The notes beneath the pieces were generated by a model. It was not told where the DNA came from. It did not search any database and worked only from the letters and a program-made list of their open reading frames with translations. Below are positions 2,891 to 57,237 of a stretch of DNA of 64,000 nucleotides, one piece after another; the first letter of the stretch is position 1, and each line of letters begins with the position of its first letter. The DNA comes from Mobula birostris. Its lineage: Eukaryota. Made by a program: the position numbers and the translations under genes. The stretch spans positions 63,934,008 through 63,998,007 of the forward strand of contig NC_092379.1 in the NCBI RefSeq assembly GCF_030028105.1, written 5' to 3'.

Positions 2891-4117
2891 ATTCAAATTG
2901 TGATCAATAGTTGAAGAAGATGGCTTTCTGCTAACTTCTTAGGGCAACAGTAAACGTTCAATCGATTGCCAAAAACTATACAATGAACAGAATATTTTTT
3001 GTCATTTTTAACTATGTTTGCCCAAGTTCTGAGCTACATGCTGATCATGGCCACTTGTTACTTACAGAAATATTGATTTGTAGAACATTGAGGCTGCAAC
3101 TGAAATCAAATAAAAAATTTACTTATGTTCATTTAAATCTGAATCTCCTGAAAATAAGACATCTGGATGATCTTCATGGGTGTTCTTAGACTACTAATCT
3201 GTGAATGCATCTATGACATCGGTTGTAACCCATTAGTACCACACCCATACCACTCCAGAAATAGGAGACCTAAGTTTTAAATGAACATTGCAGTGCAATA
3301 TTGAAGAGGAAATGAAGCACAATGCTTATTTTATACACTGTTTCGTAATGAGCTCAGTTTCTCACACTGTGCTCTGAATAGAACTGAGGGAACCTCCACG
3401 GTGATGGGATTTTAAAAAGATGAAGGAATTTTTAGCTATTTGCCATTATTTCAGACTTTAAAGTGCACTTTTTTTTTACTTTTTGAGACATATATTGTTA
3501 TAAATATGTTTAATTTTTTGTTTTGGAGAATCTTCAATTCCCAGTGATGATGTGATGACAAATACTATTATTTGGTTTACAGGAAGGCTAAGTTCAGTTG
3601 AAAAGAACTGAAAAAAAGGGAAAACATCAAAGGGAACTATAATACAAACATTCATAGTGGTTCTAACAGAGAGGAGCCTATTACAGAGTTCCAGCTAATT
3701 AGAAAGACAAATTGAATTGAAAGGAGAATTGATTATGAAGCATTCAAAATAGTCTCTGAAGCTTTAAGTGGTGGAAGATGGAAGAAAGCATGTCAAAGAG
3801 ATGAACTGTATTCTAAAGCATCCTGTCACAATGCCACCAATGTCTTTCCAGGGCTTGACACATCTACTTGGTAACAATCAAGATAGCTGTTAAATCTTGG
3901 CACTGGGGCACCAGGGAGTTAGATAGATACAAATTCATCTCCAGCCAACCTCAGCACGAAGTCTGGACTGCTGACACAGGTCAAACCCGACTGTTTGGCC
4001 GCCCCTTCTACTAAACCAGCCATAGGATTAACTGTAGTATAAACCAATACGCTTATCTATCTATCAATTATGTACCTGTCATAGTGGTAAATGTGGACTC
4101 TGAGTCTCTCTCCCAGA

Positions 4118-4169
4118 TATAGGTATGGTCTCAAAGCTGGGTTGGAGCAGCTATGGGACCATACCTATA
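4118..4169. repeat. Inverted repeat: 22-bp stem, 8-nt loop
   Basis: TATAGGTATGGTCTCAAAGCTG-ggttggag-CAGCTATGGGACCATACCTATA; one G-U pair and one mismatch. Confidence 0.85.
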
Positions 4170-4265
4170 CAATAAATTAGACATCTATACAATAAGTAAG
4201 ATATCTATACAATAAACAAGACATCTATACAAGAAATGAGACATCTATAAAATAAATGAGACATC
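4166..4265. repeat. Minisatellite, 20-bp unit x5
   Basis: Consensus tatacaataaatgagacatc repeated five times with few substitutions. Confidence 0.9.
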
Positions 4266-4691
4266 CCAGTGATAAGAAAAGTTGATGAAGTAACTAGATT
4301 CAGTGACATAACACATGCTGCAGAGAAACGTCTAGAAAAATATGGAATCAGCTGTACTGAAAACTTCGCTGAACATTTACACATATATAATTGATTGTAT
4401 AAAAATACAAGCAACCAAAGGAAAAGTTAGACTACATGAAAAATAACAATTTTACGTTCTAATCCAACAGATGTCGACGTGAAAATGAGAATTCTGAAAT
4501 CATACCCAGTGTCCATTTGATCAGTGAGAATAAAGAATTATTGCTGCAGAAGATAGTGTGACTTTGTTGTGCAATATGTGTCTGTGTGAGTGATGATAGT
4601 AAGTAAAAATGAGAACAACATGGCATTCGTGCTGAATATGTGAAGGTCTGGTAGTTTAATTTGACTGTGGTCTTCAAGAATAAAAGTGAGA

Positions 4692-4727
4692 AGTCCTGAC
4701 GAAGGGTCTCGGCCTGAAACGTCGACT
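4692..4727 (+). ncRNA. Minimal type I hammerhead ribozyme motif
   Basis: Stem I AGTC/GACT, core CTGACGA (4696-4702), stem II AGG..CCT, GAAAC (4716-4720), GTC cleavage triplet (4721-4723), palindromic ACGT stem III. Confidence 0.8.
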
Positions 4728-4824
4728 GCACCTCTTCCTAGAGATGCTGCCTGGCCTGCTGCGTTCACCAGCAACTTTTATGTGTGTTGCTTGAATTTCC
4801 AGCATCTGCAGAATTCCTGTTGTT
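4692..4824 (+). mobile_element. Short Penelope-derived non-coding insertion (terminal repeat segment)
   Basis: Nearly identical to the reverse complement of 44473-44570; flanked by TSD tgagaagt (4687-4694 and 4825-4832). Confidence 0.9.
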
Positions 4825-5501
4825 TGAGAAGTAAACTAGGTGCTTTTCCAAAGTTAATCTTGGGCAATTTTGACTCTTCTCTAATACAGACCATTTCCTT
4901 GGGTAGGCAGAGGTCTAGCCTTAAGCTGCACATGCCAAATGACAAAGGAGTACACAGACTCCAGAAGATCTTGTGGCCATACATAGTATAAAATGACCAA
5001 GACTTCTTTGTACTTCTTCTAATTTTTGTTCATTCTTTGTTCTTATATTGGTTATGTGTGCAAATTGTGTGATGACATTATATTGTAAAGGCTCTTAACT
5101 GTAAATTCCATTTGAAACAAATATACTGTACGTATAGGGCTTCAGAAAGCTTAACATTGAGTTAGAGTTGGTGTGAATTGCCAGCAGGTACTGAAAAGTC
5201 CAATTACATGATCTGAGATTATTAACTTATTAATGTGTGATATTTTATTCCTTGCTCTTGCACTCTGTGGGGTATTTCCGGTGGCTCCCTCTGACTGCCA
5301 AACATGCAGCTTTGTTGCATCTGGGCAAGGGTCCTTTGAGTGCCAGTTCTTTCTACACGTCTCCTTGCATCTGGGCCCTTCTCCATTTTCTATTTACAAA
5401 CTCCACTTCATGCTTTTCATTGGAGCCGTTTGTTTTTTAGTACATCAGCATTTTCATGTTCTGTGCAGTGTCTTTGTTAGAAAAGCTATAAAATGCATGT
5501 A

Positions 5502-6124
5502 CCAGGGGTGATTGGTAAGTTCATGGCCTAAGGTAGAAGGAGTCAATTTTAGAAAACCTAGCATATTTATTTTTCAACATAGTCCCCTCCTACACGTACA
5601 TAGTTAGTCCAGTGGCCGTGGAGCACACGGATCCCTTCTTTGTAGAAGTGGTCCACAGCAGGGGTGATTGATAAGTTTGTGGCCAAAGGTAGAAGGCGAT
5701 GAGTTATTAACTTCAAACTTTCTGCATTATCACTCAAAGAGTTGAACTGCACGTGCATGCAACAAGAGCGTCTTGGACCTCCAGGTGGTCCACAACAGGG
5801 GTAACTGATAAGTTCATGGCCTAAGTTAGAAGGAGATGAGTTATACAGCTCTTATTACATGCACATGCAGTTCAACTCTTTGAATGAAAATGCAGACAGT
5901 TTGAAGTTAATAACTCATCTCCTTCTACCTTAGGCCACGAACTTATCAATCACCCCTGCTGTGGACCACTTCTGCAGGTCCAAGACACCGACTTCTACAA
6001 AGGAGGGATCCGTATGCTCCATGACTGCTGGACTAAGTGTGTAAATATAGGAAAAGTAAATGTGCTAGGTTTTCTAAAATTGACTACTTCTACCTTAGGC
6101 CATGAACTTATCAAATACCCCTCG
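5502..6124. mobile_element. Mariner-derived foldback MITE
   Basis: TA TSD (5500-5501 and 6125-6126); TIRs c(c/g)aggggt..tt g(g/a)taagttcatggcctaaggtagaag; both arms carry the mariner transposase C-terminus remnant (FYKEGIRVLHGHWTNYVRVGGDYVEK* on minus). Confidence 0.9.
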
Positions 6125-6948
6125 TAAATACCCTGCAGTCTTTGAAAAGGGCAAAACAAATTTATGCCAGTGAATTACTTTAAATAAATGGTTGTAGGCT
6201 CCTGTGCCCCAGTCTTCCAGAGTTAACAACAGAATTACACATTCACCACACGGAGTCAATCAAGGTAAACCTCAAGGTAGCAGATTTAGATGTCAATAAA
6301 CATTGAGTGGAATAGACAGAATTATATTTAACTAGGTTAAAGTTCAAGCAAATTGCATAAAATATGTATCTCCAAATAAATAGAAATCAGACTGATTATT
6401 TAAACTACGAATGCTTAACTATTTTCTATAGAATGTATCTCCCCGCTCATTGCAAGATAACTGAAGATTTTATGTGTTACAGTTGCACACCAGGATGTTT
6501 ATTAATTAATCCAACTAGCAAAAGAACATCAGGTGAAGTTGCACTGCAAGGTTTCGATTGAGACCTGGATTTGAATTTTAGAACCAGAGACCACCTTACA
6601 GACAGTGAGTGGTGTTTAACCCTTCAATACTGACAGGGCTTTATGGCTGGCAGAGAGCTTGTTGAGAAATACAGGCCACAGGCTTGACACTGACTGTTTT
6701 TAGTGTTTATGGGAATTCAAACTTAGTTATTAAAATAATGCAATTTCCTGAAAGAGGAATGAAGATTTCTAAGGCCTAAACATAGCACATAAGCATTTCA
6801 TTAATTTAAGTATATTATACTGTTGGGAACAAGTGTGTGAGAATGCAATTGTGACTCTGGCACATCCTCTGAACATTGGTTTCACTTCTCTGGCATAGCT
6901 ATAAGATATCAATCTGAGCCCAGTGATAGCCCCAGGGCCTCTGAGTCA

Positions 6949-7460
6949 AGACCATAAGACTATAAGACATAGGAGCAGAATTAAGCCATCTGGCCCATCG
7001 AGTTTACTCCACCAATCAATCATGGCTGATCTTTTTTCTCTCCTCCTCAACTCCAGTTCCTGGTCTTCTCCCCATAACCTTTGATGCAGTGTCCAATCAA
7101 GAACCTATCAATCTCTGCCTTAAATACACCCAACAACCTGGCCTCCTCAGCTGCATGTGGCAACAAATTCCACAAATTCACCACCCTTTGGCTAAAGAAA
7201 TTTTTCCGTATCTCTATTTTGAAAAGGTGCCCCTCTATCCTGAGACTGTGCCCCCCCCCTTGTCCTAGACTCTCCCACCATGGGAAACATCCTTTCCACA
7301 TCTACTCTGTCTAGGCCTTTCAACATTTGAAAGGTTTCAATGAGATCCCCACTTCTGAACTCCAGCAAGTACAGACCCAGAGCCATCAAACGTTCCTCGT
7401 ATGATAACCCTTTCATTCCTGGAATCATCCTTGTGAACCTCCTCTGGACCCTCTCCAATC
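6949..7460 (-). mobile_element. 5'-truncated CR1 LINE (RT C-terminus and 3' tail)
   Basis: ERVQRRFTRMIPGMKGLSYEERL, FFSQRVVNLWN; tail repeats accataag/actataag. Confidence 0.92.
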
Positions 7461-7534
7461 AAAAGACCATTCCAATGATTTAAGCACCAAGTTATGCTGA
7501 CATGCCATTAAGTTACTGAAGGATAGGTGGACCC

Positions 7535-7835
7535 TTAGTCATTAAGATATTTGAATGAGTTCTTAAACTGAAGCACCACTCATCCTTTCTGATGAACTCA
7601 GTAATTTCTTTCAAAGAAGTATATGGGAGCTCTCCCCAGTGTCTCACCGAATAATTATCCTTCCACCAGTGTAACTGAACACAAATCATCGAATCATTTA
7701 TTTATCTGTTCTTTGTATGACCTTGGTGTGTGCAAATTGGTGACAATAGTAATTCCATTTTAAAAGTACTTAATTGCCTTTCTAGCACAATGTGGTTGTG
7801 AAAGGGCACGATATCATTGTAAATTCTTTCTTTCA
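7535..7835 (+). mobile_element. Ancient DeuSINE (SacSINE1/AmnSINE1-like) Deu domain and tail
   Basis: gggagctctccccagtgtc...tatccttccaccag...ttggtgtgtgcaaattgg...aaaagtacttaattg...gtgaaagggcacgatat...ttctttctttc follows the Deu-domain consensus order. Confidence 0.65.
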
Positions 7836-8371
7836 TTCGTTTTTTTCTTGGGATATACACAGTGATTTTTCTGCCCCTTACAATAATGAAACTGTTGAGA
7901 TATTCCTATTGGGGAGGTATTCATGAATCAAAAATTCTGGACAATTGTATTATATTTAGTACATAAATTTTGGGGTCAGAAACACTGAGGCTTGGTATTA
8001 ATTTTTTACTTTAGATCGAAGATGTCTGGCATTGAGTGACAAGTGCCCAGCATGAAGCAAATGTTTCTCTTTAAATCCCTTTAAAAAAACTGCGGGGTAC
8101 CTGTAACAAACTGTGACATCTCGTCATCAAAGTGGTAAAATACAGAAGCACTTTGGAGGACTTTTCTATGTTCTTGTTGAACATGTGTTTGCCTGATGAT
8201 AGGAACACTGTGTGCCATTTGGAATCCATCATGAATGAGTATACTATTGTGAAAATTGTGGCATTGCACTATACCTGACAATGGGCTTTATATAATTCAT
8301 TGTCTTGGTGTTCAGAATGAAGGTACTGCACATTAAAGTATAAGAAACAAAAAAAATGCAAAAGATATTTT

Positions 8372-9168
8372 AAAGTTCAAAGTTCTGAGTTAATTTTTAT
8401 CGAAGTACATGTACCTGAAATTAATTTCCTTGCGGGCATACTCAGTAAATCTATAATAGAATAATAACTATAATAGAATCAATGAAAGAATGAACCAACT
8501 TGGGCTTTCAACCAGTGTAAAACAGACATCAAACTGTGCAAATAGAAACAGAAAGAAATATTTAAAAAATAAATAAATATGTAATAAATATGGAGAACAT
8601 TAGATGAAGAGTCCTTGAACGTGAGTCCATAGGTTGTGGGAAACTTTCAATGATGAAGTGAAGATGAGTGAAGTTGTCCCCTCTGGTTCAAGAGCCAGAT
8701 GCTTGAAGGGTAATAACTGTTCCTGAACCTGGCGGTGTGATCCTGAGGTTCCTGTACCTTCCTCCTGATCGTTGCAGCAAGAAGAGAGTATGTTCTGAAT
8801 GGTGGGCATCCCTGATGATGGATGCTGCTTTCCTGTGATAATGCTTCATGTAGATGTGCTCAATGGTGGGGAGAGCTTTGCTCGTGATAGTCTGGGTGGT
8901 ATCCATTACATTTCGTAGGATTTCCCATTCAAAGGCATTGTTGTTTTCATACCAAGCAGTAATGCAGCCAGTCAATGTACTCTCCATGACACATCTACAG
9001 AAATCTGTCAAAGCTTTTGATGCCATGCTCACCCTTGCAAACTCTTAAAGAAATCGAGGCACTGCCGTGTTTTTTTCATAATTGCACTTTTGTGCTGGGC
9101 CCAGAACAGGTCCTCCAAAATAATAACACTGAGGAATCTAAAGATTTTCAGTCTCCCTCCTATATGCT
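8372..9168 (-). mobile_element. Rex1/Babar LINE, 3' part
   Basis: ESTLTGCITAWY, KAASIIRDAHH, SGGRYRNLR; tail (gaacttt)n; ends in AYRRETENL next to the CR1 insertion. Confidence 0.88.
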
Positions 9169-10419: not shown

Positions 10420-13190
10420 AGATGTGACTTTTTAATGCAAGAAGTATCATGAACAAAGTGGATGAGCTTAGAGTGTGGATCAGTACTTGCTATGGCCATT
10501 CCAGAGACTTCAATGGCTCAGAGGCAGGAATGGCTACTTAGAGTGCCAAGCTTCAGATGTTTCAGAAAAGACAGGGCGGGAGGCAAAAGAGGTGGGGGTG
10601 TGGCACTGCTGATCAGAGATAGTGTCGCGGCTGCAGAAAAGGAGGAAGTCATGCAGGGATTGTCTATTGAGTCTCTGTGGGTTAAAGTTAGAAAGAGGAA
10701 GGGGTCAATAACTCTACTGGGTGTTTTTTATAGACCATCCAATAGTAACAGGGACATCGAGGAGCAGATAGGGAGGCAGATTCTGGAAAGGTGTAATATT
10801 TCTGTGCTATAGTCTATAACTCTAATGCAATAACAGGATTGTGGTGGTAGGCGATTTTAATTTCTCCAGTATTGATTAGCATCTCCTAGAGCAAGAGCTT
10901 TAGATAGGGTAGAGTTTGTTAGGTGTGTTCAGGAAGGTTTCCTGACGCAGTAGGTAGATAAGCCTACAAGAGAAGAGGTTGTACTTGATCTGGTATTGGA
11001 AAATGAACCTGGTCATGTGTCAGGTCTCTCAGTGGGAGAGCATTTTAGTGACAGTGATCACAATTCTATCTCCTTTACTATAGAATTAGACAGGGATAGG
11101 AACAGACAAGTTAGGGAAGCGTTTAACTGGAGTAAGGGGAAATATGAAGCTATCAGGCAGCAACTTGGAAGCATAAATTGGGAACAGATGTTCTCAGGGA
11201 AATGTACAGCAAAAATGTGGCAAATGTTCAGGGATATCTGTGTGGTGTTCTGCATAGGTACATTCCAATGAGACAGGGAAAGGATGGTAGGGTACAGGAA
11301 CCGTGGTGTACAAAGGCTGTTGAAAATCTAGTCAATAAGAAGAGAAAAGCTTACCAAACGTTCAAAAAACTAGGTAATGATAGAGATCTAGAAAATTATA
11401 AGGCTAGTAGGAGGGAGCTTAAGAATCAAATTAGGAGAGCCAGAAGGGGCTATGAGAAGGCCTTGATGAGCAGGATTAAGGAGAACCGCAAGGCATTCTA
11501 CAAGTATGTGAAGAGCAAGAGGATAACACATGAGAGAATAGGACCAATCAAGTCTGACAATGGAAAAGTGTGTATGGAACCGGAGGAGGTAGTGGAGGTA
11601 CTTAATGAATACTTTGCTTCAGTATTCACTACAGAAAATGATCTTGGCGGTTTTGGGGATGACTCACAGTGGACTGAAAAGCTTGAGCATATAGACATTA
11701 AGAAAGAGGATGTGCTGGAACTTTTGGATAAGTCACCGGGACCAGACGAGATATCCCCCAGGCTACTGTGGGAAGTGAGGGAGAAGATTGCTGAGCCTCC
11801 AGCAATGATCTTTGCATCTTCAATGGGGATGGGAGACATTCCGGAGGACTGGAGGGTTGCAGATGTTGATCCCTTATTCAAGAAAGGGAGTAGAGATAGC
11901 CCAGGAAATTATAGACCAGTGAGTCTTACTTCAGTGGTTGGTAAGTTGATGGAGAAGATTCTGAGAAGCAGGATTTATGAACATTTGGAGAGACATGATA
12001 TGATTAGGAATAGTCAGCATGGCTTTGTCAAAGGTAGGTCATGCCTTACAAGCCTGATTGAATTTTTTGAGGATATGACTAAACACATTGATGAAGGAAG
12101 AGCAGTAGATGTAGTGTATATGGATTTCAGCAAGGCATTTGATAAGGTACCCCATGTAAGGCTTATTGAGAAACTAAGGAGGCATGGGATCCAAGGGGAT
12201 CTTGCTTTGTGGATCCAGAAATGGCTTGCCCACAGAAGGCAAAGAGTGGTTGGAGATGGATCATATTCTGCATGGAGGCCGTTCACCAGTGGTGTGCCTC
12301 AGGGATTTGTTCTGGGACCCCTTCTCTTTGTGATTTTATAAATGACCTGGATGAAGAAGTGGAGGGATGGGTTAGTAAGTTTGCTGATGACACAAAGGTT
12401 GGGGGTGTTGTGGATAGTATTGAGAGCTGTCAGAGGTTACAACGGGATACAAAACTGGGCTGAGAAATGGCAGATGGAGTTCAACCCAGATAAGTGTGAG
12501 GTGGTTCATTTTTTTAGGTCAAATGTGATGGCAGAGTATAGTATTAATGGTAAGGCTCTTGGCAGTGTGGAAGATCAGAGGGATCTTGTGGTCCAAGTCC
12601 ATAGGACACTCAAAGCTGCTGCACAGGTTGACTGTGTGGTTAAGAAGGCATACGGTGCATTGGCCTTCATCAACCGTGGGATTGAGCTTAAGAGTTGAGA
12701 TGTAATGTTATAGTTATATAGAACCCTGGTCAGACCCCACTGGGAGTACTGTGCACAGTTCTGGTCACCTCAGTACAGGAAGGATGTGGAAACTATAGAA
12801 AGGGTGCAGAGGAGAATTACAAGAATGTTGCCTGGATTTGAGAGAATGCCTTATGAGAATAGGTTGAGTGAACTCGGCCTTTTCTCCTTGGAGTGACGGA
12901 GAATGAGAGGTGACCGGACAGGGATGTATAAGATGATGAGAGGCATTGATCATGTGGATGGTCAGAAGCTTTTCCCCAGGGCTGAAATGGCTAACACCAG
13001 AGGGCACAGTTTTAAGGTACTTGGAAGTAGGTACAGATGAGATGTCAGGGGTAAGTTTTTTACTCAGGGAGTGGTGAGTGTGTGGAATGGGCTGTCGGCG
13101 ATGGTGGTGGAGGCAGATACAATAGGGTCTTTTCAGAGACTCCTGGACAGGTACATGGAGCTTAGAAAAATAGAGGGCTATGGGTAACCC
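10420..13190 (+). pseudogene. CR1 ORF2p: APE endonuclease and reverse transcriptase (frameshifts and stops)
   Basis: GGGVALLI, GVFYRP, SDHNSI, NYRPVSLTSVVGKLMEKIL, YMDFSKAFDKVPH, GVPQGFVLGPLLF, KFADDTK. Confidence 0.95.
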
Positions 13191-15184: not shown

Positions 15185-15520
15185 GAGCTGGAGACACTCA
15201 GCAGTCAGACAGTATGCATGGAAAAAGTTGTTATTTGAAAGCTGATGACAAAAGCCAGAGATGAAATGTTAACTGGAGACATAAGTGACTGCAGATGCTG
15301 AAATATGAGGAAAAATCGAACTGCTGGAAGAATGCGATGGGTCGAGCAGCATCGTTATACAGGGTCTTCACTCAAAACACTGGCAGTTTCTTTCACTCAC
15401 AGATGCTGCCTGGCCCACTGTGTTCTTCCAGCAGATTGTTTTGGCCTCCAGAATGTTAACTCTATCTTTTTTTAAACAGATGCTGCTGAACTACCGAGTG
15501 GCTCCATTAAGTGCTTTCTT
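15185..15520. mobile_element. Two nested decayed Penelope-derived terminal elements
   Basis: Outer copy CTGATGA...GAAATGTTAACT...acagatgctgc is split by an inner inverted-repeat copy (15275-15451); TSD aatgttaact at 15265-15274 and 15452-15461. Confidence 0.7.
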
Positions 15521-17530: not shown

Positions 17531-17852
17531 TGTCCCTACTTTATTTTTATTTTCTCTTGTAAATGAATCACTGTTTGATTGGGTCGCTGGAAAATACTAA
17601 AAGCCTGTGAACGTACCTTCTTAAAACCCCATTCGTTGACCTGTAAATTGCCTCCTCCCTCTCCCGATTTGAATGGACCACTGAAATAATGTCGAAAACC
17701 CATGAACACTTTTTTTAAAATCTCAATGGTCTCATGCAACAGTTCTCTCAGATAATTCTGAGGAAAATTGCTGTTGTGTGATACATGGCTGTTACTCTGG
17801 TGTGTGTAACTTATATATAGAAGTATATATTCTATATTTATAGAACAATATA

Positions 17853-18993
17853 AACAACACACACAAAATGCTGGACAAACTCAGCAGGCCAGGCAACATC
17901 TATGGACAAAAGTACAGTCGATGTTTCAGGCCGAGACCCTTTGGCAGGAAGCCCTAGACACTGCCTGGCCTGCTGAGTTCCTCCAGCATTTTGTGTGTGT
18001 TGCTCGGATTTCCAACATCTGCAGATTTTCTCATAGTCATAGTCATACTTTATTGATCCCGAGGGAAATTGGTTTTCGTTACAGTTGCACCATAAATAAT
18101 TAAATAGTAATAAAACCATAAATAATTAAATAGTAATATGTAAATTATGCCAGGAAATAAGTCCAGGACCAGCCTATTGGCTCAGGGTGTCTGACCCTCC
18201 AAGGGAGGAGTTGTAAAGTTTGACGGCCACAGGCAGGAATGACTTCCTATGACGCTCTCTGGCTGAACGTACTCCTGTGCCCAACCAGTACATTATGTAG
18301 TGGATGGGAGACATTGTCCAAGATGGCATGCAACTTGGACAGCATCCTCTTTTCAGACACCACCATCAGAGAGTCCAGTTCCATCCCCACAACATCACTG
18401 GCCTTACGAATGAGTTTGATTCTGTTGGTGTCTGCTACCCTCAGCCTGCTGCCCCAGCACACAACAGCAAACATGATCGCACTGGCGACTACAGAGTCAT
18501 AGAGCATCCTCAGCATCGTCCGACAGATGTTAAAGGACCTCAGTCTCCTCAGGAAATAGAGACGGCTCTGACTCTTCTTGTAGACAACCTCAGTGTTCTT
18601 TGACCAGTCCAGTTTATTGTCAGTTCGTATCCCCAGGTATTTGTAATCCTCTACCATGTCCACACTGACCCCCTGGATGGAAACAGGGGTCACCGGTACC
18701 TTAGCTCTCCTCAGGTCTACCACCAGCTCCTTAGTCTTTTTCACATTAAGCTGCAGATAATTCTGCTCACACCATGTGACAAAGTTTCCTACCGTAGCCC
18801 TGTACTCAGCCTCATCTCCCTTGCTGATGCATCCAACTATGCCAGAGTCATCAGAAAACTTCTGAAGATGACAAGACTCTGTGCAGTAGTTGAAGTCCGA
18901 GGTGTAAATGGTGAAGAGAAAGGGAGACAAGACAGTCCCCTGTGGAGCCCCAGTGCTGCTGATCACTCTGTCGGACACACTCTTTCTCGTTTG
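17853..18993. mobile_element. Penelope-derived short element with inverted termini, interrupted by Rex1
   Basis: 16-bp TSD tttatagaacaatata (17837-17852 and 18994-19009); inverted arms acacacacaaaatgctgg..actcagcaggccaggca / tgcctggcctgctgagt..ccagcattttgtgtgtgt; decayed hammerhead on minus at about 17915-17950. Confidence 0.88.
18033..18982 (-). mobile_element. Young 5'-truncated Rex1-type LINE
   Basis: Open frame 18247-18980: GAPQGTVLSPFLFTIYTSDF, QKFSDDSGIVGCI, LNVKKTKELVVD; tail AATAAAG(TATGAC)n; probable TSD tttctc. Confidence 0.93.
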
Positions 18994-19583
18994 TTTATAG
19001 AACAATATAGATTTGATACACAACCTGAGCTCTCAGGGGATCAGTTGCCAATCCTCCACCACTCCTGCCCAGTTCATATACTGTTCCTTTACCCGAAACT
19101 ACATTCCTCCTCCTGTGAGTCCTCTCCCACACAATATTTTGGCTTCCTCCCCAATCCCTTCTCCTCCTAAAGCCAGTGTTCTGCTCTCTTTCCCACTGAG
19201 TGACTCTTTCTCCGCATTTCCTATGAACCTCCACTGACACTTTCCTCTACCCTAACCCCCTCCACTTTATTGCTTGGTTCATTATCATCAGCAAGATCCA
19301 CCATTGATATGTTAGTTTGCAAAGCTTGTTCTATCCCTCAGGATGCACTGGGACTGGCAAGCAATATGATTTCAGTGTTGACAGACCTCAGAAGAGGCAG
19401 GCAGAGTTTAATTTGAATCTAAGAGGACAGTTGGTTTCGGTATCTGTCAATTCTATGTCAGCTCTGGGCAATTTCCAGTTGGTGCTAAATTTTAAATCAG
19501 AAATCAGAGAAATTGGATTATGGAAGGCAAGGCTTTAAAAGCTTCTGAGGGAAGTGCAAGGGATGAACTAATTTTAGAATGAT

Positions 19584-19676: not shown

Positions 19677-19739
19677 CCAGATCTTGCCCTACTTTACTCC
19701 CTCACTTCTTTATATTTGTTATCTCTGCTCTACTCTTTT

Positions 19740-19830
19740 AGTCCAGATGAGGAACTTGACCAAAACATGAACTGTCCATTTCCCTTCACAGAAGCTGCCT
19801 GACTCAATGATGTCCTCCAGCAGTTCATTG
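19740..19830 (+). mobile_element. Decayed Penelope terminal segment with hammerhead remnant
   Basis: agtccagatgagg...aaaacatgaact...cacagaagctgcctgactc...cctccagca parallels 4692-4775. Confidence 0.6.
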
Positions 19831-35129: not shown

Positions 35130-35637
35130 TATATGTTTATTTATTGGGGTACAGCGTGGGATAGGCCCTCCACCCCAGCTACCCCCAGTTTTACCAAAGC
35201 CTAATCATAGGACAATTTACAGTGACCAGTTTAACCAAAGCCTAATCATGGGACAATTTACAGTGACCAGTTTAACCAAACCCGAATCATGGGACAATTT
35301 ACAGTGACCAGTTTAACCAAAGCCTAATCATGGGACAGTTTACAATGTCCAGTTTAACCAAAGCCTAATCATGGGACAATTTACAGTGACCAGTTTAATC
35401 AAAGCCTAATCATGGGACAATTTACAATGACCAGTTTAACCAAAGCCTAATCATGGGATAATTTACAATGACCAATTCACCTACCAACTGCTATGTGCCC
35501 AGACTGTGGGAGGGAACCAGAGCACCCAAAGGTAACCCAAACGGTTACAGGGAGAATGTATCAACTCTTCACAGGCAGCAGTAGGAATTGAACCCGAGTC
35601 ACCTGTTGTGCCAACCACTATGTTACCCTGCCACCCT
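35130..35637 (-). mobile_element. V-SINE with internal minisatellite expansion
   Basis: (ttta)n tail, V domain gactgtgggagggaaccagagcaccc, B box ggaattgaaccc; collinear with 50325-50632. Confidence 0.88.
35188..35474. repeat. Minisatellite, 41-bp unit x7
   Basis: gtttaaccaaagcctaatcatgggacaatttacagtgacca at 35188, 35229, 35270, 35311, 35352, 35393 and 35434. Confidence 0.95.
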
Positions 35638-42250: not shown

Positions 42251-44534
42251 CTGGAGATGAAATTCCATGAGGTAAGCCACATTTGAGAAAACCAAAGGTC
42301 CCAATGAGAAATCACAGAGAGGTGACAAAATTGTCAACTGCCTCTATTGTCCCAGCACATCTGAGGAAAAGACTGAAGATCAAGACTTTGGGCAATAGCC
42401 AATTAGAGATTGGAAATGTGAGAAGACGTAGCTCACTCAGGTTCACCAATTGAGTAGGAAAGGTATCAACTCACGGCAGATTGGTGTTTTCAGCAGTGGC
42501 CAATCAGAGTTTGGTATTGATTGGTAAGAACAAATTAAAATAAGGCAGGAACAAGCAGAGTGGCCAATATCAGAGCAGCCATAGTGTGAGTGGATAGTTA
42601 TGGTGGGGATTTTGAGGATTTAGCTCTTCAAGGCTTGAGTGAGAGAAAGCGAAAAGCTATAGGTAAATTTTTATTCCACAGTTTATTTATTGTTTCTCCT
42701 TCTATATGTTTGCCCAGTTAGAACAGTAAGGATGCTAGGCAAGATAGTTAAATGCTTCACTTGCAGGATGTGTGAAGGCAGGGAGGCCTCCATAGTCCCT
42801 GATGACTACACCTGCGAGAAGTGTGTCCAGCTGCAGCTTCTAACAATCCATGTTAAGGAGTTGGAGCTGGAACAGGATGAACTCCAGATCAGGCAAGAGT
42901 CTGAGGAGGTGATAGGTGGGACATGTAGAGAGATAGATACACCCAAGGTGCAGGACACAGGAAACTGGGTGAGAGTCAGTGCAGGACACCCATGTGGCTA
43001 GCCCCTTCAGGTATACTGTTGTGGGTGGGATGACCTAGCAGTGGAAAGTTACAGCAGTCAGGTCTCTGGCACTAGGTCTGTCTCTGTGACCCAGAAGGGA
43101 ATGGGGGAAAACAGGCAAGCAGTGGTAATAGGAGATTCATTAGTTATGGGAACAGAAAGGAGGTTCTGTGGATGAGAACGAGATTCCCAGATGGTATGTT
43201 GGTTCCCAGGTGCCAGGGTCCAGGACATCTCAAATCGATTCCTCAGCATTCTTAAGTGGGAGGGTGAGCAGCCAGAGGTCGTGGTCCATGTAGGTACTAA
43301 TGACGTAGATAGGAAGAGCGACAAAGTTCTGCAAAGTGAGTTCAGGGAGTTAGGCGCTAAGTTAAAGGGTTGGATCTCCAGGGTTTTGATCTCAGGATTG
43401 CTACCCATGCCACGTGATAGTGAGGCCAAAAATAGGAAGATTATAGAGTTTGACACATGGCTAAGGAGTTGGTGTAGGAGGGAGGATGTCAGATTTTAGG
43501 ATCTTTGGCTCTCTTCCAGGGAAAGTGGGACCTGTACAAACGAGATGGTTTGCAACTGGACTGGAAGGGGACTAATATCCTAGTGGGAAGATTTGCTAGT
43601 ACTGCACAGGGTGGGGTGGGGTTTAAACTAGAGTTCCGGGGGGGGGGGGGCGGGGTGGAAACCAGAATGCCAGAACAGACAGTGGAGAATTTGTGGAGAC
43701 AGATGTTATTAAGACCTCAGACATAGTTAGGGATCAAAAGGTTGAGCATGGTACGACTAATGTCCTGAGCAGCATATACTTCAATGCAAAAAGCATCGTC
43801 GGAAAGGCAGGTGAGCTCAGGGCATGGATCAGCACCTGCATTATGATACTGTAGCCATTAGTGAGACTTGGTTGCAGGAGGGGCAGGAATGGCAGCTCAA
43901 TATTATGATGTTCTGTTGTTTTAGCTGCGACCGAGTGGGAGGGATTAAAAGTAGAAGAGTGGTGTTATTAGTCAGCGAAAATGTCATGGCAGTGCTCAGT
44001 CAGGACAGACTGGAGAACTTGTCTAGTGAGGCGTTATGGATGGAACTGATTAATAAGAAAAGTATTACCAGGTTAATGGTCTGTGGGATTTAGAGGAACA
44101 AGTTTGTAGAGAGATTGCAGACTGTTGCAAGAAGCATGAGGTGGTTACAGTAAATGATTTTAACTTTCCACATATTGACTGGGACTCCCATACAGTAAAA
44201 GGTCTAGATGGGGTAGAGTTTGTCAAATGTGTTCAGCAACATTTCCTTAATCAGTACATAGAATTCTCTATGAGAGTGTGTGATACTTGATCTGCTGTTA
44301 GGGAATGAGGCAGGTGACAGAGTTTGCGTAGTGTTCCACTTTGCATCTAAAGATCATAATGCCATTGGTCTCAAAGTAAATATGGAAAAAGACAGGTCTG
44401 GTCCATGGACTGAGATTGTAAATTGGAGAAAGGCCAATTCTAATGGTATCAGAAAAGATCTGGCAAGTGTGGCAACACACATCAAAGTTGCTGGTGAACA
44501 CAGCAGGCCGGGCAGCATCTCTAGGAAGAGGTAC

Positions 44535-44570
44535 AGTCGACGTTTCAGGCCGAGACCCTTCCTCAGGACT
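44535..44570 (-). ncRNA. Minimal type I hammerhead ribozyme motif at the Penelope 3' end
   Basis: Minus strand AGTC-CTGAGGA-AGGGTCTCGGCCT-GAAAC-GTC-GACT. Confidence 0.8.
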
Positions 44571-44866
44571 TACTGAAGGAAGAGTTAGTAAGAGATTTGA
44601 AAGTTGGAGGAGGAAGGGGAGATCCAAAAAGATAGGAGAAGACAGGAGGGGGAGGGATGGAGCCAAGAGCTGGACAGGTGATTGGCAAAGGGGATATGAG
44701 AGGATCATGGGACAGGAGGTCCGGGGAGAAAGACAAGGGAGGGGGGAGAACCCAGAGGATGGGCAAGGGGTATAGTCAGAGGGACAGAGGGAGAAAAAGG
44801 AGAGAGAGAGAAAGAATGTGTGTATAAAAATAAATAACAGATGGGGTACGAGGGGGAGGTGGGGCA

Positions 44867-45193
44867 TTAGCGGAAGTTAGAGAAGTCAATGTTCATGCCA
44901 TCAGGTTGGAGGCTACCCAGACGGAATATAAGGTGTTGTTCCTCCAACCTGAGTGTGGCTTCACCTTTACAGTAGAGGGGGCCGTGGATAGACATGTCAG
45001 AATGGGAATGGGATGTGGAATTAAAATGTGTGGCCACTGGAAGATCCTGCTTTCTCTGGCGGACAGAGCGTAGGTGTTCAGCAAAGCGGTCTCCCAGTCT
45101 GCGTTGGGTCTCGCCAATATATAGAAGGCCACATCGGGAGCACCAGATGCAGTATATTACCCCAGCCGACTCACAGGTGAAGTGTTGCCTCAC
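44867..45193 (-). pseudogene. Penelope GIY-YIG endonuclease domain, frameshifted from RT
   Basis: FTCESAGVIYCIWCSRCGLLYIGETQRRLGDRFAEH...LEEQHLIFRLGSLQPDGMN. Confidence 0.93.
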
Positions 45194-45293
45194 CTGGAAG
45201 GACTGTTTGGGGCCCTGAATGGTGGTAAGGGGGGAAGTGTAAGGGCATATATAGCACTTGTTCCGCTTACAAGGATAAGTGCCAGGAGGGAGA

Positions 45294-46340
45294 TCAGTAG
45301 GGAGGGATGGGGGGGGGGCGAATGGACAAGGGAGTCACGTAGGGAGCGATCCCTGCGGAAAGCGGGGGCGGGGAGGGAAAGATGTGCTTAGTGGTGGGAT
45401 CCCGTTGGAGGTGGCAGAAGTTACAGAGAATAATATGTTGGACCCGGAGGCTGGTGGGGTGGTAGGAGAGGACCAGGGGAACCCTATTCCTAGTTGGGTG
45501 GCAGGAGGATGGAGGGAGAGCAGATGTGCGTGAAATGGGGGAGATGCGTTTGAGAGCAGAGTTGATAGTGGAGGAAGGGAAGTCCCTTTCTTTAAAAAAG
45601 GAAGACATCTCCCTCGTCCTGGAATGAAAAGCCTCATCCTGAGAGCAGATGCGGCGGAGACGGAGGAATTGCGAGAAGGGGATGGCATTTTTGCAAGAGA
45701 CAGGGTGAGAAGAGGAATAGTCCAGATAGCTGTGAGTGTCAGTAGGCTTATAGTAGACATCAGTGGATAAGCTGTCTCCAGAGACAGAGACAGAAATATC
45801 TAGAAAGGGGAGGGAGGTGTCGGATATGGACCAGGTAAACTTGAGGGCAGGGTGAAAGTTGGAGTCAAAGTTAATAAAGTCAACGAGTTCTGCATGCGTG
45901 CAGGAAGCAGCGCCAATGCAGTTGTCGATGTAGCGAAGGAAAAGTGGGGGACAGATACCAGAATAGGCAGGGAACATAGATTGTTCCACAAAGCCAACAA
46001 AAAGGCAGGCATAGCTAGGACCCACACGGGTGCCCATAGCTACACCTTTAGTTTGGAGGAAGTGGGAGGAGCCAAAGGAGAAATTATTAAGAGTAAGGAC
46101 TAATTCCGCTAGATGGAGCAGAGTGGTGGTAGAGGGGAACTGATTAGGTCTGGAATCCAAAAAGAGGCGTAGAGCTTTGAGACCTTCCTGATGGGGGATG
46201 GAAGTATATAAGGACTGGACATCCATGGTGAAAATAAAGCGGTGGGGGCTAAGGAACTTAAAATCATCGAAAGGTTTAAGAGCGTGAGAAGTGTCACGAA
46301 CATAGGTAGGAAGGGATTGAACAGGGGGGGATAAAACCAT
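45294..46340 (-). pseudogene. Penelope reverse transcriptase domain (YIDD changed to YIDN)
   Basis: FTMDVQSLYTSIPH, LTLNNFSF, QTKGVAMGTRVGPSYACLF, FLRYIDN, LPFLDI, VYYKPTD, YLDYSSSHP. Confidence 0.93.
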
Positions 46341-48799
46341 GTCGAGGTATGCAGAAACGAGTTTGGTGGGGCAGGAGCAAGCTGAGCCAATAGGTCTGCC
46401 AGGACAGGCAGGTTTGTGGATCTTGGGTAGGAGGTAGAAACGGGAAGTGCAGGGTGTGGGAACTATAAGGTTGGTCGCAGTGGATGGGAGATCCCCTGAG
46501 CGGATAAAGTCGGTGCGATGGGAGATCCCCTGGATTGGGACAGGCTGCTTTCTGGCAAAAGGTGCACTTGGTAAGTGGAAAGCCTTCAGAAATGAAATTT
46601 TGAGAGTACAAAGCTTGTATTTGCCTGTCAGAATATAAGCTAAAGATTACAGGTTTAGGGGACCTTGGTTTTCAAGAGATATCGAGGTCATTGTTAAGAG
46701 AAAAAATCTGTATATCTGGTATAAGCAGGTAGGAACAAATGAGATACTTATGGAGTATAAGAAATGCAAGAGAACACTTAAAGAAATCAGGAAGGCTAAA
46801 AGAAGGCATCGTGTTGCCCTAGGAGACAAAGTGAAGCAGAATGCTAAGGGATCCTAAAGACATGTTAAGAGCAAATGGATTGCATGGTACAAAATTAGTA
46901 GTCCTGAAGATCAGATGGTAATCCATGCATGGAGCCAAAAGAGATGGGGGAGAAGTTAAATGAATTTTTTTGCAGCTGTATTTACTCAGGAGATGGACAC
47001 AGAGTCTATAGAAGTGAGACAAAGTGGCATCAACTTCATGAACCCTGTACAGATTACAGAGGAGGAGGTGTTTGCTGTCTTGGGGTAAATTAGGGTGGTT
47101 AAATCCCCAGGCATGAGAAGGTGTTCCCTCAGACCCTGTGGCAGGCAACAGCAGAAATTGCCGGGGCCCTAGCAGAGAGATTTAAATCATCCTTAGCAAC
47201 AGGTGAGATACCAGAGGGCTGGAGGATAGCCAATGTTGTTCTGCTTTTTTAAGAAAGGCTCTATATAGTAAACCAGGAAATTATATGCCAATGAGCCTGA
47301 CATCAGTAGTGAGAAAGTTATTAGAAGGTGTTCTAAGGGACCGAATATATGAGTATTTGGATAGACAGGGACTGATTAGGGATAATCAGCATGGCTTTAT
47401 GTGTGGTAGGTCGTGTCTAGCCAATCTTACAAAGTTTTTTGAGGAAGTTACCAGGAAAGTTGATGAAGACAGTGGATTTTGTCTGCATGGACTTTAGAAT
47501 GGCAGTTAACAAGGTCCCACATGGGAGGTTGGTCAAGAAGATTCAGTCGCTCGGCATTCAAGACGAGGAGGCAGTAAATTGGATTAGACATTGGCTTTGT
47601 GGGAGAAGCGAGAGAGTGGTAGTAGATGATTGCCTCTCTGCCTGGAGGCCTGTGACTACTGGAGTGCCGCAGAGATTGGAACTTGGTCCAGTGTTGTTTG
47701 TCATCTATATCAACAATGTGGATGATAATACAGTAAACTGGATCAGCAAATTTTCAAATAACACCACGATTCGAGGCATAGTCAACAGTGAATAAAACTA
47801 TCACAACTTCCAGCAGGATCTGGACCAGCTGGAAAAGTGGGCTGAAAAATTACAGATGGAGTTTAATGCAGACAAGTGCAAGGTATTGCACTTTGGTAGG
47901 ACTGATCAGGATAGGTCTTAAACAGTGAACGATAGGGCACTGAGAAGTGCTGCAAAACAAAGGCACCTGGGAATACAGGCCCATAATTCTTTGAAAGTGA
48001 CTTCTTAGGTAGACAGGGTCATAGAGAAAGCTTTTGGCACATTGGTATTCATAAATCAAAGTACTGAATACAGGAGATGGGGTGTTATGTTGAAGTTGTA
48101 TAAGATGTTGATGAGGCCTAATTTGGAATATTGTATGGTCACCTGCCTACAGGAAAGATGTAAATAAGATTGATAGAGTACAGAGAAAATTAACAAGAAT
48201 GTTGTGAGGACTGGAAGACCTGAGTTATATGGAATGATTGAATAGGATAGGACTTTATTCCTTGGAATGTAGAAGATTGAGGGGAGATTCGATAGTGGTA
48301 TGCAAATTATGAAGGGTATAGATAGAGTAAACGCAAGCAGGCTTTTTCCACTGAGGTTGGGTGGGACTACAACTAGAGGTCATGGGTTAAGGATGAAATG
48401 TGAAAAGTTTAAAGGGAATGTAAGGAAGAACTTCATCACTCAGAGGGTCAGAAGGAATGAGCAGCCAGCACAAGTGGTGCATGTGAGCTCAATTTCAATG
48501 TTGAAGGAAAGTTTGGATAGATGCATGAATGGTAGGGGTATAGAGGGTTATGGCAGGTCGATGGGAACGAGCAGTTTAAATGGTTTGGTATAGACTAGAG
48601 GGGCTGAAGGGCCTGTTTCTCTGCTGTACTTTCCTATGACTCAATGACTTTTAACACAGCACACAATTTATGGTCAGCCAGGCAGCAGTGATCCTCCAGG
48701 CAGCAGTGATACCCATTATCCTATACCTTTTGAAATCTAAACTGCTCACAGCAGGCATCCAAAGCACTTAAGAGGCACCACCAACATTGTATCAGCAAA

Positions 48800-52811: not shown

Positions 52812-53085
52812 AATCTGTTTGGTGATGTTAATTCACCAAGGTATAGATACAGTTAGATACAGGTATAGTTAATTCACTGGGGTATAGATATAGGTATCAT
52901 CAATTCACTGAGGTGTAATCTGTTTGGTGATGTTAATTCACTGGGGTATAGATATAGGTATCGTCAATTCACTGAGGTGTAATCTGTTTGGTGATGTTAA
53001 TTCACTGGGGTATAGATATAGGTATCGTTAATTCACTGAGGTATAATCTGTTTGGTGATGTTAATTCACTGAGGTATAGATATGG
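52812..53085. repeat. Compound minisatellite, 64-bp period with an aattcactg(a/g)ggt sub-repeat
   Basis: aatctgtttggtgatgttaattcac at 52812, 52917, 52981 and 53045. Confidence 0.92.
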
Positions 53086-53111
53086 GATAGTGCTCCAGAC
53101 TTACTTTAACA

Positions 53112-55164: not shown

Positions 55165-56450
55165 TTCACTCATCCAGGCTGCTGCCCCTACAAGCTTCAA
55201 ATCCACCACGTTCATCCCTGTTGCAGAGAACTGTACATCTTCAGAAGTAAACGATTGCCCAGTGACACTGATAACAATCATCATGAGTGCTTTGAACAGC
55301 TGATAATGGCACATATCAAATACCCCAATGCTGCCTCATTGGACACTCACCACTATGCTAACTGACAAAACTGCTCTGTGACAGATGTTAAGCAACTTCT
55401 AGAGCATTTATACTCTAGCACCTGCCATGCACCTGGCTCTGACACGCCAAGAAAACGAGGACACTTATGTCAGAATGCTGCTTCTGGATTTCAGTTCAGC
55501 ACTCAGCGCTACTGTCCCACAGAGCTTGGTGAGCAAACTCCTACTCCTCGGTCTAAATACACAACTGTGCAACTGGGTGTTGGACTCCCTAATCAACAGA
55601 CCACAGACAGGGTGCACAACCGCTTCACCCTCCCTAGCATCCTCAACACGGGTCCCTCCACCACCCCCCAGGACTGTGTGCTGAGCCCACTGCTGTACAC
55701 TCTGCTCATATGCGACTGCACGGCCAAACACCCAAGCAATCGCATTATCAAGTTTGCCGATGACACGGCAGTGATAAGGCTCACCACCAACAATGATGAG
55801 ATGGCCTACCGAGGGGTGCAAGCACTTGAGGCCTGGTGCCAGGTGAACAACCTCTTCCTTAAAGACAAAGGAGATGGTTGTCACCTTCAGGAGAACCCCC
55901 ACCACTCGCATCACCCTTTACATGCACGGCACAGCAGTGGAAACTGCAAGCAGCTTCAGACTCCTGGGAGTGCACATCTCACACAACCTCTCAGTGACGC
56001 AGAACACATCTTACACAGTAAGGAAAGTTCATCAAAGTTCTACTTCCTGGGGAGGCTGAAGAGAGCTGAACTTTGTACATCCATACTCACGTCATTCTAC
56101 AGATTTGCAGTGGAGAGCATCCTAACAAGCTGCATTACTGCTTGGGACAGTAACTGCACTGCAGTGGACAGGAAGACTCTACAGCAGATAGTCAAAACTG
56201 CCCAATGCATCACCGGACCAGCCTACCCTCCACCAAGGACATACATACAGAAGGGTGCCAGAAATGGGCCAGTAACATCATTAAGGATCCCACCCACACT
56301 GCCCGTCAACTGTTTGTCCCACTCCCATCAGGGAGGAGGCTACATAGCATCCAAGCCAGGACCACCAGACTCAAAAACAGTTACTTTCCCCAAGCAGTAA
56401 GGCTGATCAACACCTCCACCCACAAACTCCACCACTACTTTATCACTTTT
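55165..56450 (+). mobile_element. Rex1/Babar LINE RT region (frameshifted)
   Basis: [68 protein letters not shown]. Confidence 0.92.
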
Positions 56451-56701
56451 GTTCATTGGTGAGACTGCGTGAGGTTTAAAAAGAGCTCGTGGCCTTTCGG
56501 TGGGCTGCAAACATTGTGATCTTTCAGGCACTCGGCAGGGGGCAATAAAAGGAAGTGAGATGTAAAATGGAGCAGGCATTGTGTGAGAGGGCCAGTGTTA
56601 GGATGGTCAGGTTTTGGCTCAGCAGATTTAGGAGAGAACAGGAGTAGGCTAAAACTTAAGCTTGAGAAGTTAGAGGTATAACCAGTGTAGGCAGGAAGGT
56701 A

Positions 56702-57237
56702 CAGTACTGTGCAAAAGTTTTAGGTACATATACATAGCTAGGGTGCCTAGAACTTTTGCACAGTACTGTCATAATTTTATGGATTGCATTGTACTCCTGC
56801 CACAAAAAAAACAAATTCCATGAGAAATGTGAGCGGTGATAAACCTGCTTCTGATATGGGTCTCCATTATGGTCCGAGACAGGGAAGGAGGCAGGGGGAA
56901 GGAATTTATGGTTGGGAAAATGGGAAGGGAGAGGGGAGGGAGCAGGAAGTTTCTGAAGGACATTCTGTAATGATCAAAAAAATACAATTGCTTGGAATAG
57001 AATGACCTTACCTCAGGGCTGGGTGTGTCTGCACCCATGCTATCCCCCTCCCGGCCACCCCTTCTCTGCCACCTGTCCCCTGCACTTCCCATGGTCCTCC
57101 ACCCTCACCATTCCCAACATCCTTTGCTCCCACCAGATTTACAAACTCGCTCTCTGCTCCATGTTGACAAATACAGTACTGTGCAACGTCTTAGGCACCC
57201 TAGCTGTATATATGCCTAAGACCTTTGCACAGTACTG
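56702..57237. mobile_element. Tc1/mariner-type compound MITE with self-palindromic termini of about 67 bp
   Basis: ta|cagtactgtgcaaaagt...acttttgcacagtactg (56702-56768) and its reverse complement at about 57174-57237. Confidence 0.88.

Follow-up and report, generated by a model that had tools for sequence, protein, structure and literature searches.

A 135-bp insert at 4692-4826 of the window (the whole 64,000-nt stretch of Mobula birostris DNA analysed here) is a fragment of a Penelope-like element (PLE), a kind of sequence already known, and it begins at a position shared across its family: about 5,600 genomic copies with an exact hammerhead core start at the first or second base of stem I of the ribozyme motif (-4 or -3 in family coordinates). 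We explain the insert as a 5′-truncated copy for which the reverse transcriptase (RT) would have started internally and run off a discrete RNA 5′ end at the stem I edge, probably a transcription start; judging from sequence, we hold this reading with slightly better than even confidence. Taken singly, the insert is otherwise an ordinary dead repeat, and the family-wide fixed start, together with joins at the predicted ribozyme cut site, is the part worth following.

The first-pass annotation had described a stand-alone insertion with its own target-site duplication (TSD), and this was confirmed: an 8-bp TSD, TGAGAAGT, at 4687-4694 and 4825-4832 brackets the insert, with three bases (AGT) common to the left TSD and the element start and two (TG) common to the right TSD and the element end, and the control for the TSD search gave false positives in 0 of 300 mismatched flank pairings. 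Family coordinates are counted from C3 of the hammerhead core (window 4696), set to 0, which places the predicted cut between +27 and +28 (4723/4724). The features are listed below; here and throughout, published work is cited from the accessible parts of each source.

4687..4694, + strand: left target-site duplication TGAGAAGT; its last 3 nt are also the element start
4692..4826, + strand: solo pLTR plus tail of a Penelope-like element, 135 bp, family coordinates -4 to +130
4692..4727, + strand: minimal type I hammerhead motif (as defined in PMC4209133), with the cut predicted after 4723; the 5′ hotspot of the whole family is A4692
4761..4797, + strand: predicted hairpin; its 3′ arm falls at the short 3′-end class (+90..+103), a putative proximal RT start
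4791..4826, + strand: optional ~35-bp PLE tail, ending in the long 3′-end class (+120..+144), a putative distal RT start
4825..4832, + strand: right target-site duplication; its first 2 nt are also the element end
44472..46515, - strand: longer 5′-truncated, frame-broken copy of the same family
17848..18041, no strand assigned: head-to-head inverted pair of an older subfamily
15360..15439, + strand: decayed older copy (E 1.6e-9)
19721..19803, + strand: decayed older copy (E 2.8e-7)

The likeness noted earlier to a Penelope copy at 44473-44570 holds, at 95% identity over 100 nt to 44472-44571, the latter being without the final ~35 nt. That longer copy comprises part of the RT, a Cys linker, GIY-YIG, the 3′ UTR, the hammerhead and a short 3′ end without the tail. 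An earlier tally of at least six intact or decayed copies stood as to number, with six related copies at E<1e-6, and had to be narrowed as to state, since the core is intact in two only (4696 and 44566); the reversed window gave no relative below E 0.9. In the inverted pair at 17848-18041 the minus-strand arm begins ~2 nt before the (mutated) core. A tRNA search around the insert found none nearby, and the folding of the insert (z -1.17) is not unusual.

Other repeats in the window include a nested inverted repeat of ~630 bp close to the insert (5497-6129), tandem repeats at 35185-35477 (~82-bp period) and 52812-53086 (~65-105-bp periods), periods and loci being matched in the order listed, and LINE-type fragments, those at 11148-12341, 18247-19032 and 55366-56400 with RVT_1 or ALKBH8_N matches and further ones at 43058-44460 and 46530-48600. 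The long Penelope copy is flanked on both sides by LINE-like sequence. Short palindromic ends at 56701-56769 and 57173-57237, inverted and ~500 bp apart, possibly mark a MITE.

Inspection of the ribozyme motif bore out the intact anatomy that had been claimed, with stem I at 4692-4695/4724-4727, CUGACGA at 4696-4702, stem II at 4704-4715 and a loop-less ACGU at 4719-4722. All parts of the minimal type I definition are present (CUGANGA, an extra base, stem II, GAAA, a palindromic 15.2-16.2, NUH and stem I); the pair closing stem II in the window copy is G-U where G-C is usual, and G10.1-C11.1 is lacking. T occupies +19 in 105 of 131 young long copies, and C is most frequent there in the older set. 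An Rfam scan returned no hammerhead match up to E 1, and the bare CUGANGA..GAAA pattern occurs nine times in the window against 7.8 expected, not above chance; the identification therefore rests on anatomy and context. The core is conserved in older subfamilies, whereas -7..-5 and +33..+38 vary. Stem covariation, which the first-pass annotation had named as a check, was not found: among the top pair types of 57 copies there were wobble/Watson-Crick swaps only and no double changes. In the predicted monomer fold +2..+5 is paired with +24..+27 (-10.7 against -6.7 kcal/mol for an active-like fold), and for the dimer a double hammerhead reaches -10.9 against a minimum of -29.7 kcal/mol, computed without tertiary terms; by this modelling the active folds would differ from the predicted minimum. 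A reading frame opens at ribozyme position +3 (window 4699-4793; also at L208, minus strand), with ACG here and ATG in older copies, the latter like the anole element. The frame agrees with that of the main ORF apart from a single TGA near +96, and a T-run of variable length downstream shifts it among copies.

The source is probably a young Neptune-like Penelope element, with the clade assigned by the linker motif alone. Exact-pattern searches of the 4.0-Gb genome found a 34-mer over the core 22,090 times and a 30-mer 3′ of the core 65,396 times (reversed controls 0 each), so the very high genome-wide number that had been anticipated is real: the family has at least 65,396 copies. The Penelope origin was likewise upheld, as most copies continue upstream into the 3′ UTR, GIY-YIG and RT. 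Among the 129 scored matches out of 71,799 candidates in the RT search, identity is 92-95%, the window copy itself apart. A near-complete natural copy (L092) carries a single 958-aa frame with RT, a C-terminal GIY-YIG and a CX4CxxC linker, in which RVT_1 (E 4e-5) and GIY-YIG (E 0.005) both fall under the Pfam cut-off; the GIY-YIG match in the window lies above it. The linker CKRNKCYTC of protein P0001 fits CX2-5CxxC before the nuclease, a motif described for Neptune/Nematis and as absent in Penelope/Poseidon (PMC8557442), and it therefore points to the former. Complete copies are rare, since a 24-mer at the ORF start has just 65 occurrences, while partial tandems and inverted 5′ copies occur often and the optional ~35-bp tail is present. 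Seven copies (L182, L184, L186, L189, L190, L199 and L207) extend from the pLTR into the ORF start for ~250-390 nt, after which they rejoin the element at the ribozyme or upstream of it; their acceptor sites may be clustered around the protein-binding region.

To define the 5′ ends, 101 copies from the first 4.9 Mb of contig C1 were picked by the downstream 30-mer irrespective of where they begin; not all are independent, because a few pair up as the two arms of one inverted insertion. Seventeen begin in -5..-1, out of 79 that reach that far, a rate of 0.043 per nt against 0.003-0.010 in neighbouring bins, roughly tenfold above background (p 1e-10; equalled in 0 of 20,000 simulations). The 5′ end at stem I is thus non-random, and the randomly scattered ends that the earlier reader had said would count against the insertion's special start did not appear. 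Genome-wide counts of exact-core copies put the break before G(-3) in 3,233/38,567, before A(-4) in 3,343/35,334 and before T(-5) in 903/31,991, and 815 copies break before A(-8). On inspection these were true junctions in 26/30 cases for G(-3), 69/83 for A(-4) (the first 83 matches), 25/30 for T(-5) and ~19/30 for A(-8), the remainder belonging to point mutants or to members of older subfamilies. The size of the -5 class is roughly that expected if copies ending at -4 have a T next to them by chance. The 69 true -4 junctions comprise 18 simple TSD-flanked copies (8-16 bp, two doubtful ones excluded), 33 head-to-head inversions and 18 others. Among the 101 copies, a clean TSD was found in 7 of 17 hotspot copies against 11 of 84 others (p=0.012). 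Older copies taken as by-catch numbered 103, of which 51 had no usable core; in the other 52, whose core could be recognised, the start lies at the stem I edge in 8, further upstream in 32 and elsewhere in 12, which suggests that the hotspot is old. Seven independent inversions (L158, L161, L214, L297, L299, L325 and L338) have an antisense arm that ends near +14 and is joined to -4 with a 2-nt overlap.

The cut site was considered as a comparable start hotspot and rejected. Two of the 101 copies begin in +26..+30, and of 865 genome-wide matches 30 were inspected, 11 being true junctions; this leaves ~320 purine-flanked junctions, or ~1.3% per base (with a rough denominator) against ~10% at -4, so any peak of starts there is at most small.

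At the other end, the same 101 copies fall into two classes, 44 ending at +90..+103 and 51 at +120..+144, with six elsewhere; the window insert uses the distal site. For the anole element, the tail has been described as reflecting two internal RT start sites (PMC11167929).

The insert had been called a retrozyme-like unit that spreads by itself, and this did not survive comparison of short and long copies, which have the same variant mix and divergence. The four-site haplotype spectra of 171 hotspot and 175 long young copies agree (chi-square p=0.39; since the sample was picked via exact patterns that the copies share, the test has less power for divergent lineages), the best single column among 95 tested has p=0.018, no column is private, and divergence is 1.3% against 1.4%. 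The other half of the claim was upheld, in that the template was not cut at the ribozyme: the insert includes sequence 5′ of the predicted cut. A non-autonomous retrozyme- or SINE-like unit, transcribed and amplified by Penelope RT as a lineage of its own, would account for defined ends, TSDs, the lack of an ORF and thousands of copies, and animal retrozymes have been proposed as PLE derivatives (bioRxiv 10.64898/2026.07.22.740005); given the absence of private variants, the presence of both 3′-end classes among hotspot copies and the fact that these copies do not form hammerhead-delimited tandem units of 150-450 bp, we regard it as very improbable and largely refuted. Short copies show neither hammerhead-to-hammerhead tandem units nor cut-site starts, and the window insert is a solo TSD-flanked copy where a non-LTR retrozyme would carry tandem hammerheads. 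Short and long copies come from common source elements, the short ones as by-products. Ribozyme-only units of 30-45 bp do form small tandem arrays (L222, L220, L233, L261, L264 and L279), which are possible seeds of retrozyme-like satellites.

Joins in which a short ribozyme segment meets a copy starting near -4 were collected with a gap pattern for a period of 30-45 nt, which matched only 81 places genome-wide; 80 distinct contexts were parsed, and 69 loci remained after removal of same-locus and duplicated joins. The upstream pieces are themselves short, with starts mainly between -8 and +9. They end at +27, the last base before the predicted cut, in 25 of the 69, and in 17 of the 52 joins without microhomology (corrected p 3e-7 against a uniform null); other ends lie at +33/+34 (19/69), +30 (seven) and +26 (five). 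The last filler base is G in 12 of 19 tandem joins. The simplest reading of the +27 joins is that RT, on reaching an RNA 5′ end, jumped to the 5′ product of the ribozyme and resumed at the 3′ end of that product, and on this sequence pattern we give cleavage in vivo about even chances: the +33/+34 class needs a separate cause, the predicted monomer and dimer minima are not active folds, and the modelled monomer mispairing (+2..+5 with +24..+27) could itself direct joins to +27. CpG decay was rejected as the cause of the +27 joins: G28>A occurs in 18/131 copies, yet there are 10 exact +27/-4 joins to a single locus with a +28/-3 join. Linkage across -4 stays high (D′ mostly 0.7-0.9, 173 copies), which indicates that switches between subfamilies are uncommon; the test is blind to transfer within one RNA.

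In the mechanism that we favour, the GIY-YIG nuclease would nick the target, as the 8-16-bp TSDs imply, and RT would prime at ~+95 or ~+130, matching the two observed 3′-end classes by analogy with the anole element. The cDNA would copy the uncut ribozyme and halt at A(-4) or G(-3), the observed hotspot, which on this account corresponds to the RNA end. That end would then be joined through 1-6 nt of microhomology or a handful of filler bases, to a second cDNA lying head to head, or by a jump to a different RNA, all of which are junction types seen in the copies. Both -4 and -8 are a purine after a pyrimidine, and A(-4) lies within YYANWYY, which we take to resemble the initiator consensus. 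Jumps from -4 to other places and the G-rich filler of tandem joins fit an RNA end, possibly capped; against a cap, the last filler base of TSD-flanked copies is not G-rich (~3 G, 4 C, 1 A). A start inside the pLTR has been shown for the D. virilis Penelope (PMC2377424). A pure start-site model is weakened by the ORF-start copies that run upstream through the ribozyme, of which it expects more than the observed 1/12 (L199) to stop at the hotspot, and a start site gives no explanation of the +33/+34 joins. An antisense-template model has also been raised (PMC3846280).

The D. virilis element has its transcription start ~120 nt 5′ of the ribozyme and a splice acceptor at helix I (PMC2377424, PMC4209133); a pyrimidine tract and AG precede stem I here as well, so that the stop could be related to splicing. 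The RNA would then extend upstream, and RT would have been halted at the AG by proteins on a 3′ splice-site-like sequence (a branch-point-like TACTAAC, a pyrimidine tract and YAG) or by a ribozyme dimer pairing through stem I. The passage of 11/12 ORF-start copies through the site, the location of both hotspots (-4 and the minor -8) on the A of YAG, and the retention of the pyrimidine tract and AG in older subfamilies (A in 96% and G in 91% of 57 copies) all speak for such a block. It is unlikely in our judgement, as the loci examined include no spliced copy with upstream element sequence joined to the acceptor, there is no branch-point peak, and RT would be expected to halt on meeting the 3′ side of a helix, and not to reach its 5′ edge. 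Contigs of four runs guessed to be RNA showed GT..AG at 0 of the 15 joints listed on L210 (50 further joints lay beyond the listing); they are uninformative on starts and speak neither for nor against splicing. Less probable still is trimming by exonucleases down to a folded, protein-bound ribozyme, which would leave 5′ ends at -4/-3 and 3′ ends at +33/+34, where stem I has its two outer edges. The abrupt fall beyond -4 does coincide with the last Watson-Crick pair of that stem, and the +33/+34 ends of the tandem joins suit this idea, but stem I has just 4-5 bp, the predicted monomer fold is not active, and the G-rich tandem-join filler and the minor -8 start suit a capped start better. That ordinary random 5′ truncation fell by chance at stem I is scarcely credible: most copies are variably truncated and the insert's junction shows ordinary microhomology, but the hotspot statistics, with which the genome-wide counts agree, refute it at the level of the family.

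The run-off at a discrete RNA end that we prefer can be taken further, though we think it improbable that every part holds. RT would start ~100-135 nt from the RNA 5′ end, run off at the first ribozyme base and have to jump to the repeated 3′ end in a retrovirus-like manner; failed jumps would give the mini-inserts and repeated jumps the pLTR, and joins at GUC would be a record of in vivo cutting by a minimal Penelope hammerhead. Published accounts list pLTR regeneration and the role of the hammerhead in Penelope among the questions still to be answered (PMC2377424, PMC8557442). With its tens of thousands of nearly identical copies, the family offers nucleotide-level maps of cDNA starts, stops and jumps, and the fixed stem I stop and cut-site joins make sharp predictions for 5′ RACE and an in vitro PLE assay. 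They also outline a possible route to retrozyme precursors, in which a defined short pLTR unit is made repeatedly and is not yet a lineage of its own. As to the host, many of the at least 35,000 intact cores will lie in introns. Cleavage of host transcripts by a solo copy is nevertheless doubtful, because single minimal PLE hammerheads did not cleave alone in the published in vitro work (PMC4209133); the anole hammerhead is described as cleaving only with protein (PMC11167929).

A literature search, with subscription papers mostly outside its reach and figures and supplements partly covered, found no helix I 5′ hotspot or cut-site joins in PLEs. The family resembles Neptune/Nematis EN+ PLEs (PMC8557442) in its RT with C-terminal GIY-YIG, the CxxC between GIY and YIG, the CX4CxxC linker, the pLTR, partial tandems, inverted 5′ copies, a 30-40-bp tail and frequent 5′ truncation, and differs from the accessible description of them by its single-nucleotide 5′ hotspot at the ribozyme edge, which holds ~1/5 of the copies reaching the stop. 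With the minimal PLE hammerheads of PMC4209133 it shares the extra base after A9 and the palindromic, loop-less stem III, and dispersed single minimal hammerheads were attributed there to truncated PLEs; at least 35,000 exact cores here compare with ~4,000-9,000 in coelacanth and Xenopus (search methods differ), and most young copies here close stem II with G-U, not G-C, and vary little in sequence. The anole Poseidon PAc (PMC11167929) likewise has two adjacent internal RT starts giving rise to the tail, an uncut RNA template and a ribozyme overlapping the ORF frame; it belongs to another clade, the accessible text reports no reads ending at the cut site and no 5′ hotspot, and here an in-frame TGA parts the ribozyme frame from the ORF. 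Animal non-LTR retrozymes (PMC7229834; bioRxiv 10.64898/2026.07.22.740005) are also short and non-coding, with a type I hammerhead and a relation to the pLTR, but they form tandem repeats with one hammerhead per unit and circular RNAs, in contrast to a solo TSD-flanked copy with a minimal hammerhead and no lineage of its own; most PLE insertions are described as truncated to one terminal repeat (bioRxiv 10.64898/2026.07.22.740005). Unlike the intron-bearing Penelope of D. virilis, the family showed no strong splice donor or spliced copy. The two are alike in having an acceptor-like sequence directly before helix I, and a pLTR-internal promoter has been proposed for D. virilis; transcription there starts 46 nt upstream of a 75-nt intron, whereas here the ends cluster at the acceptor (PMC2377424).
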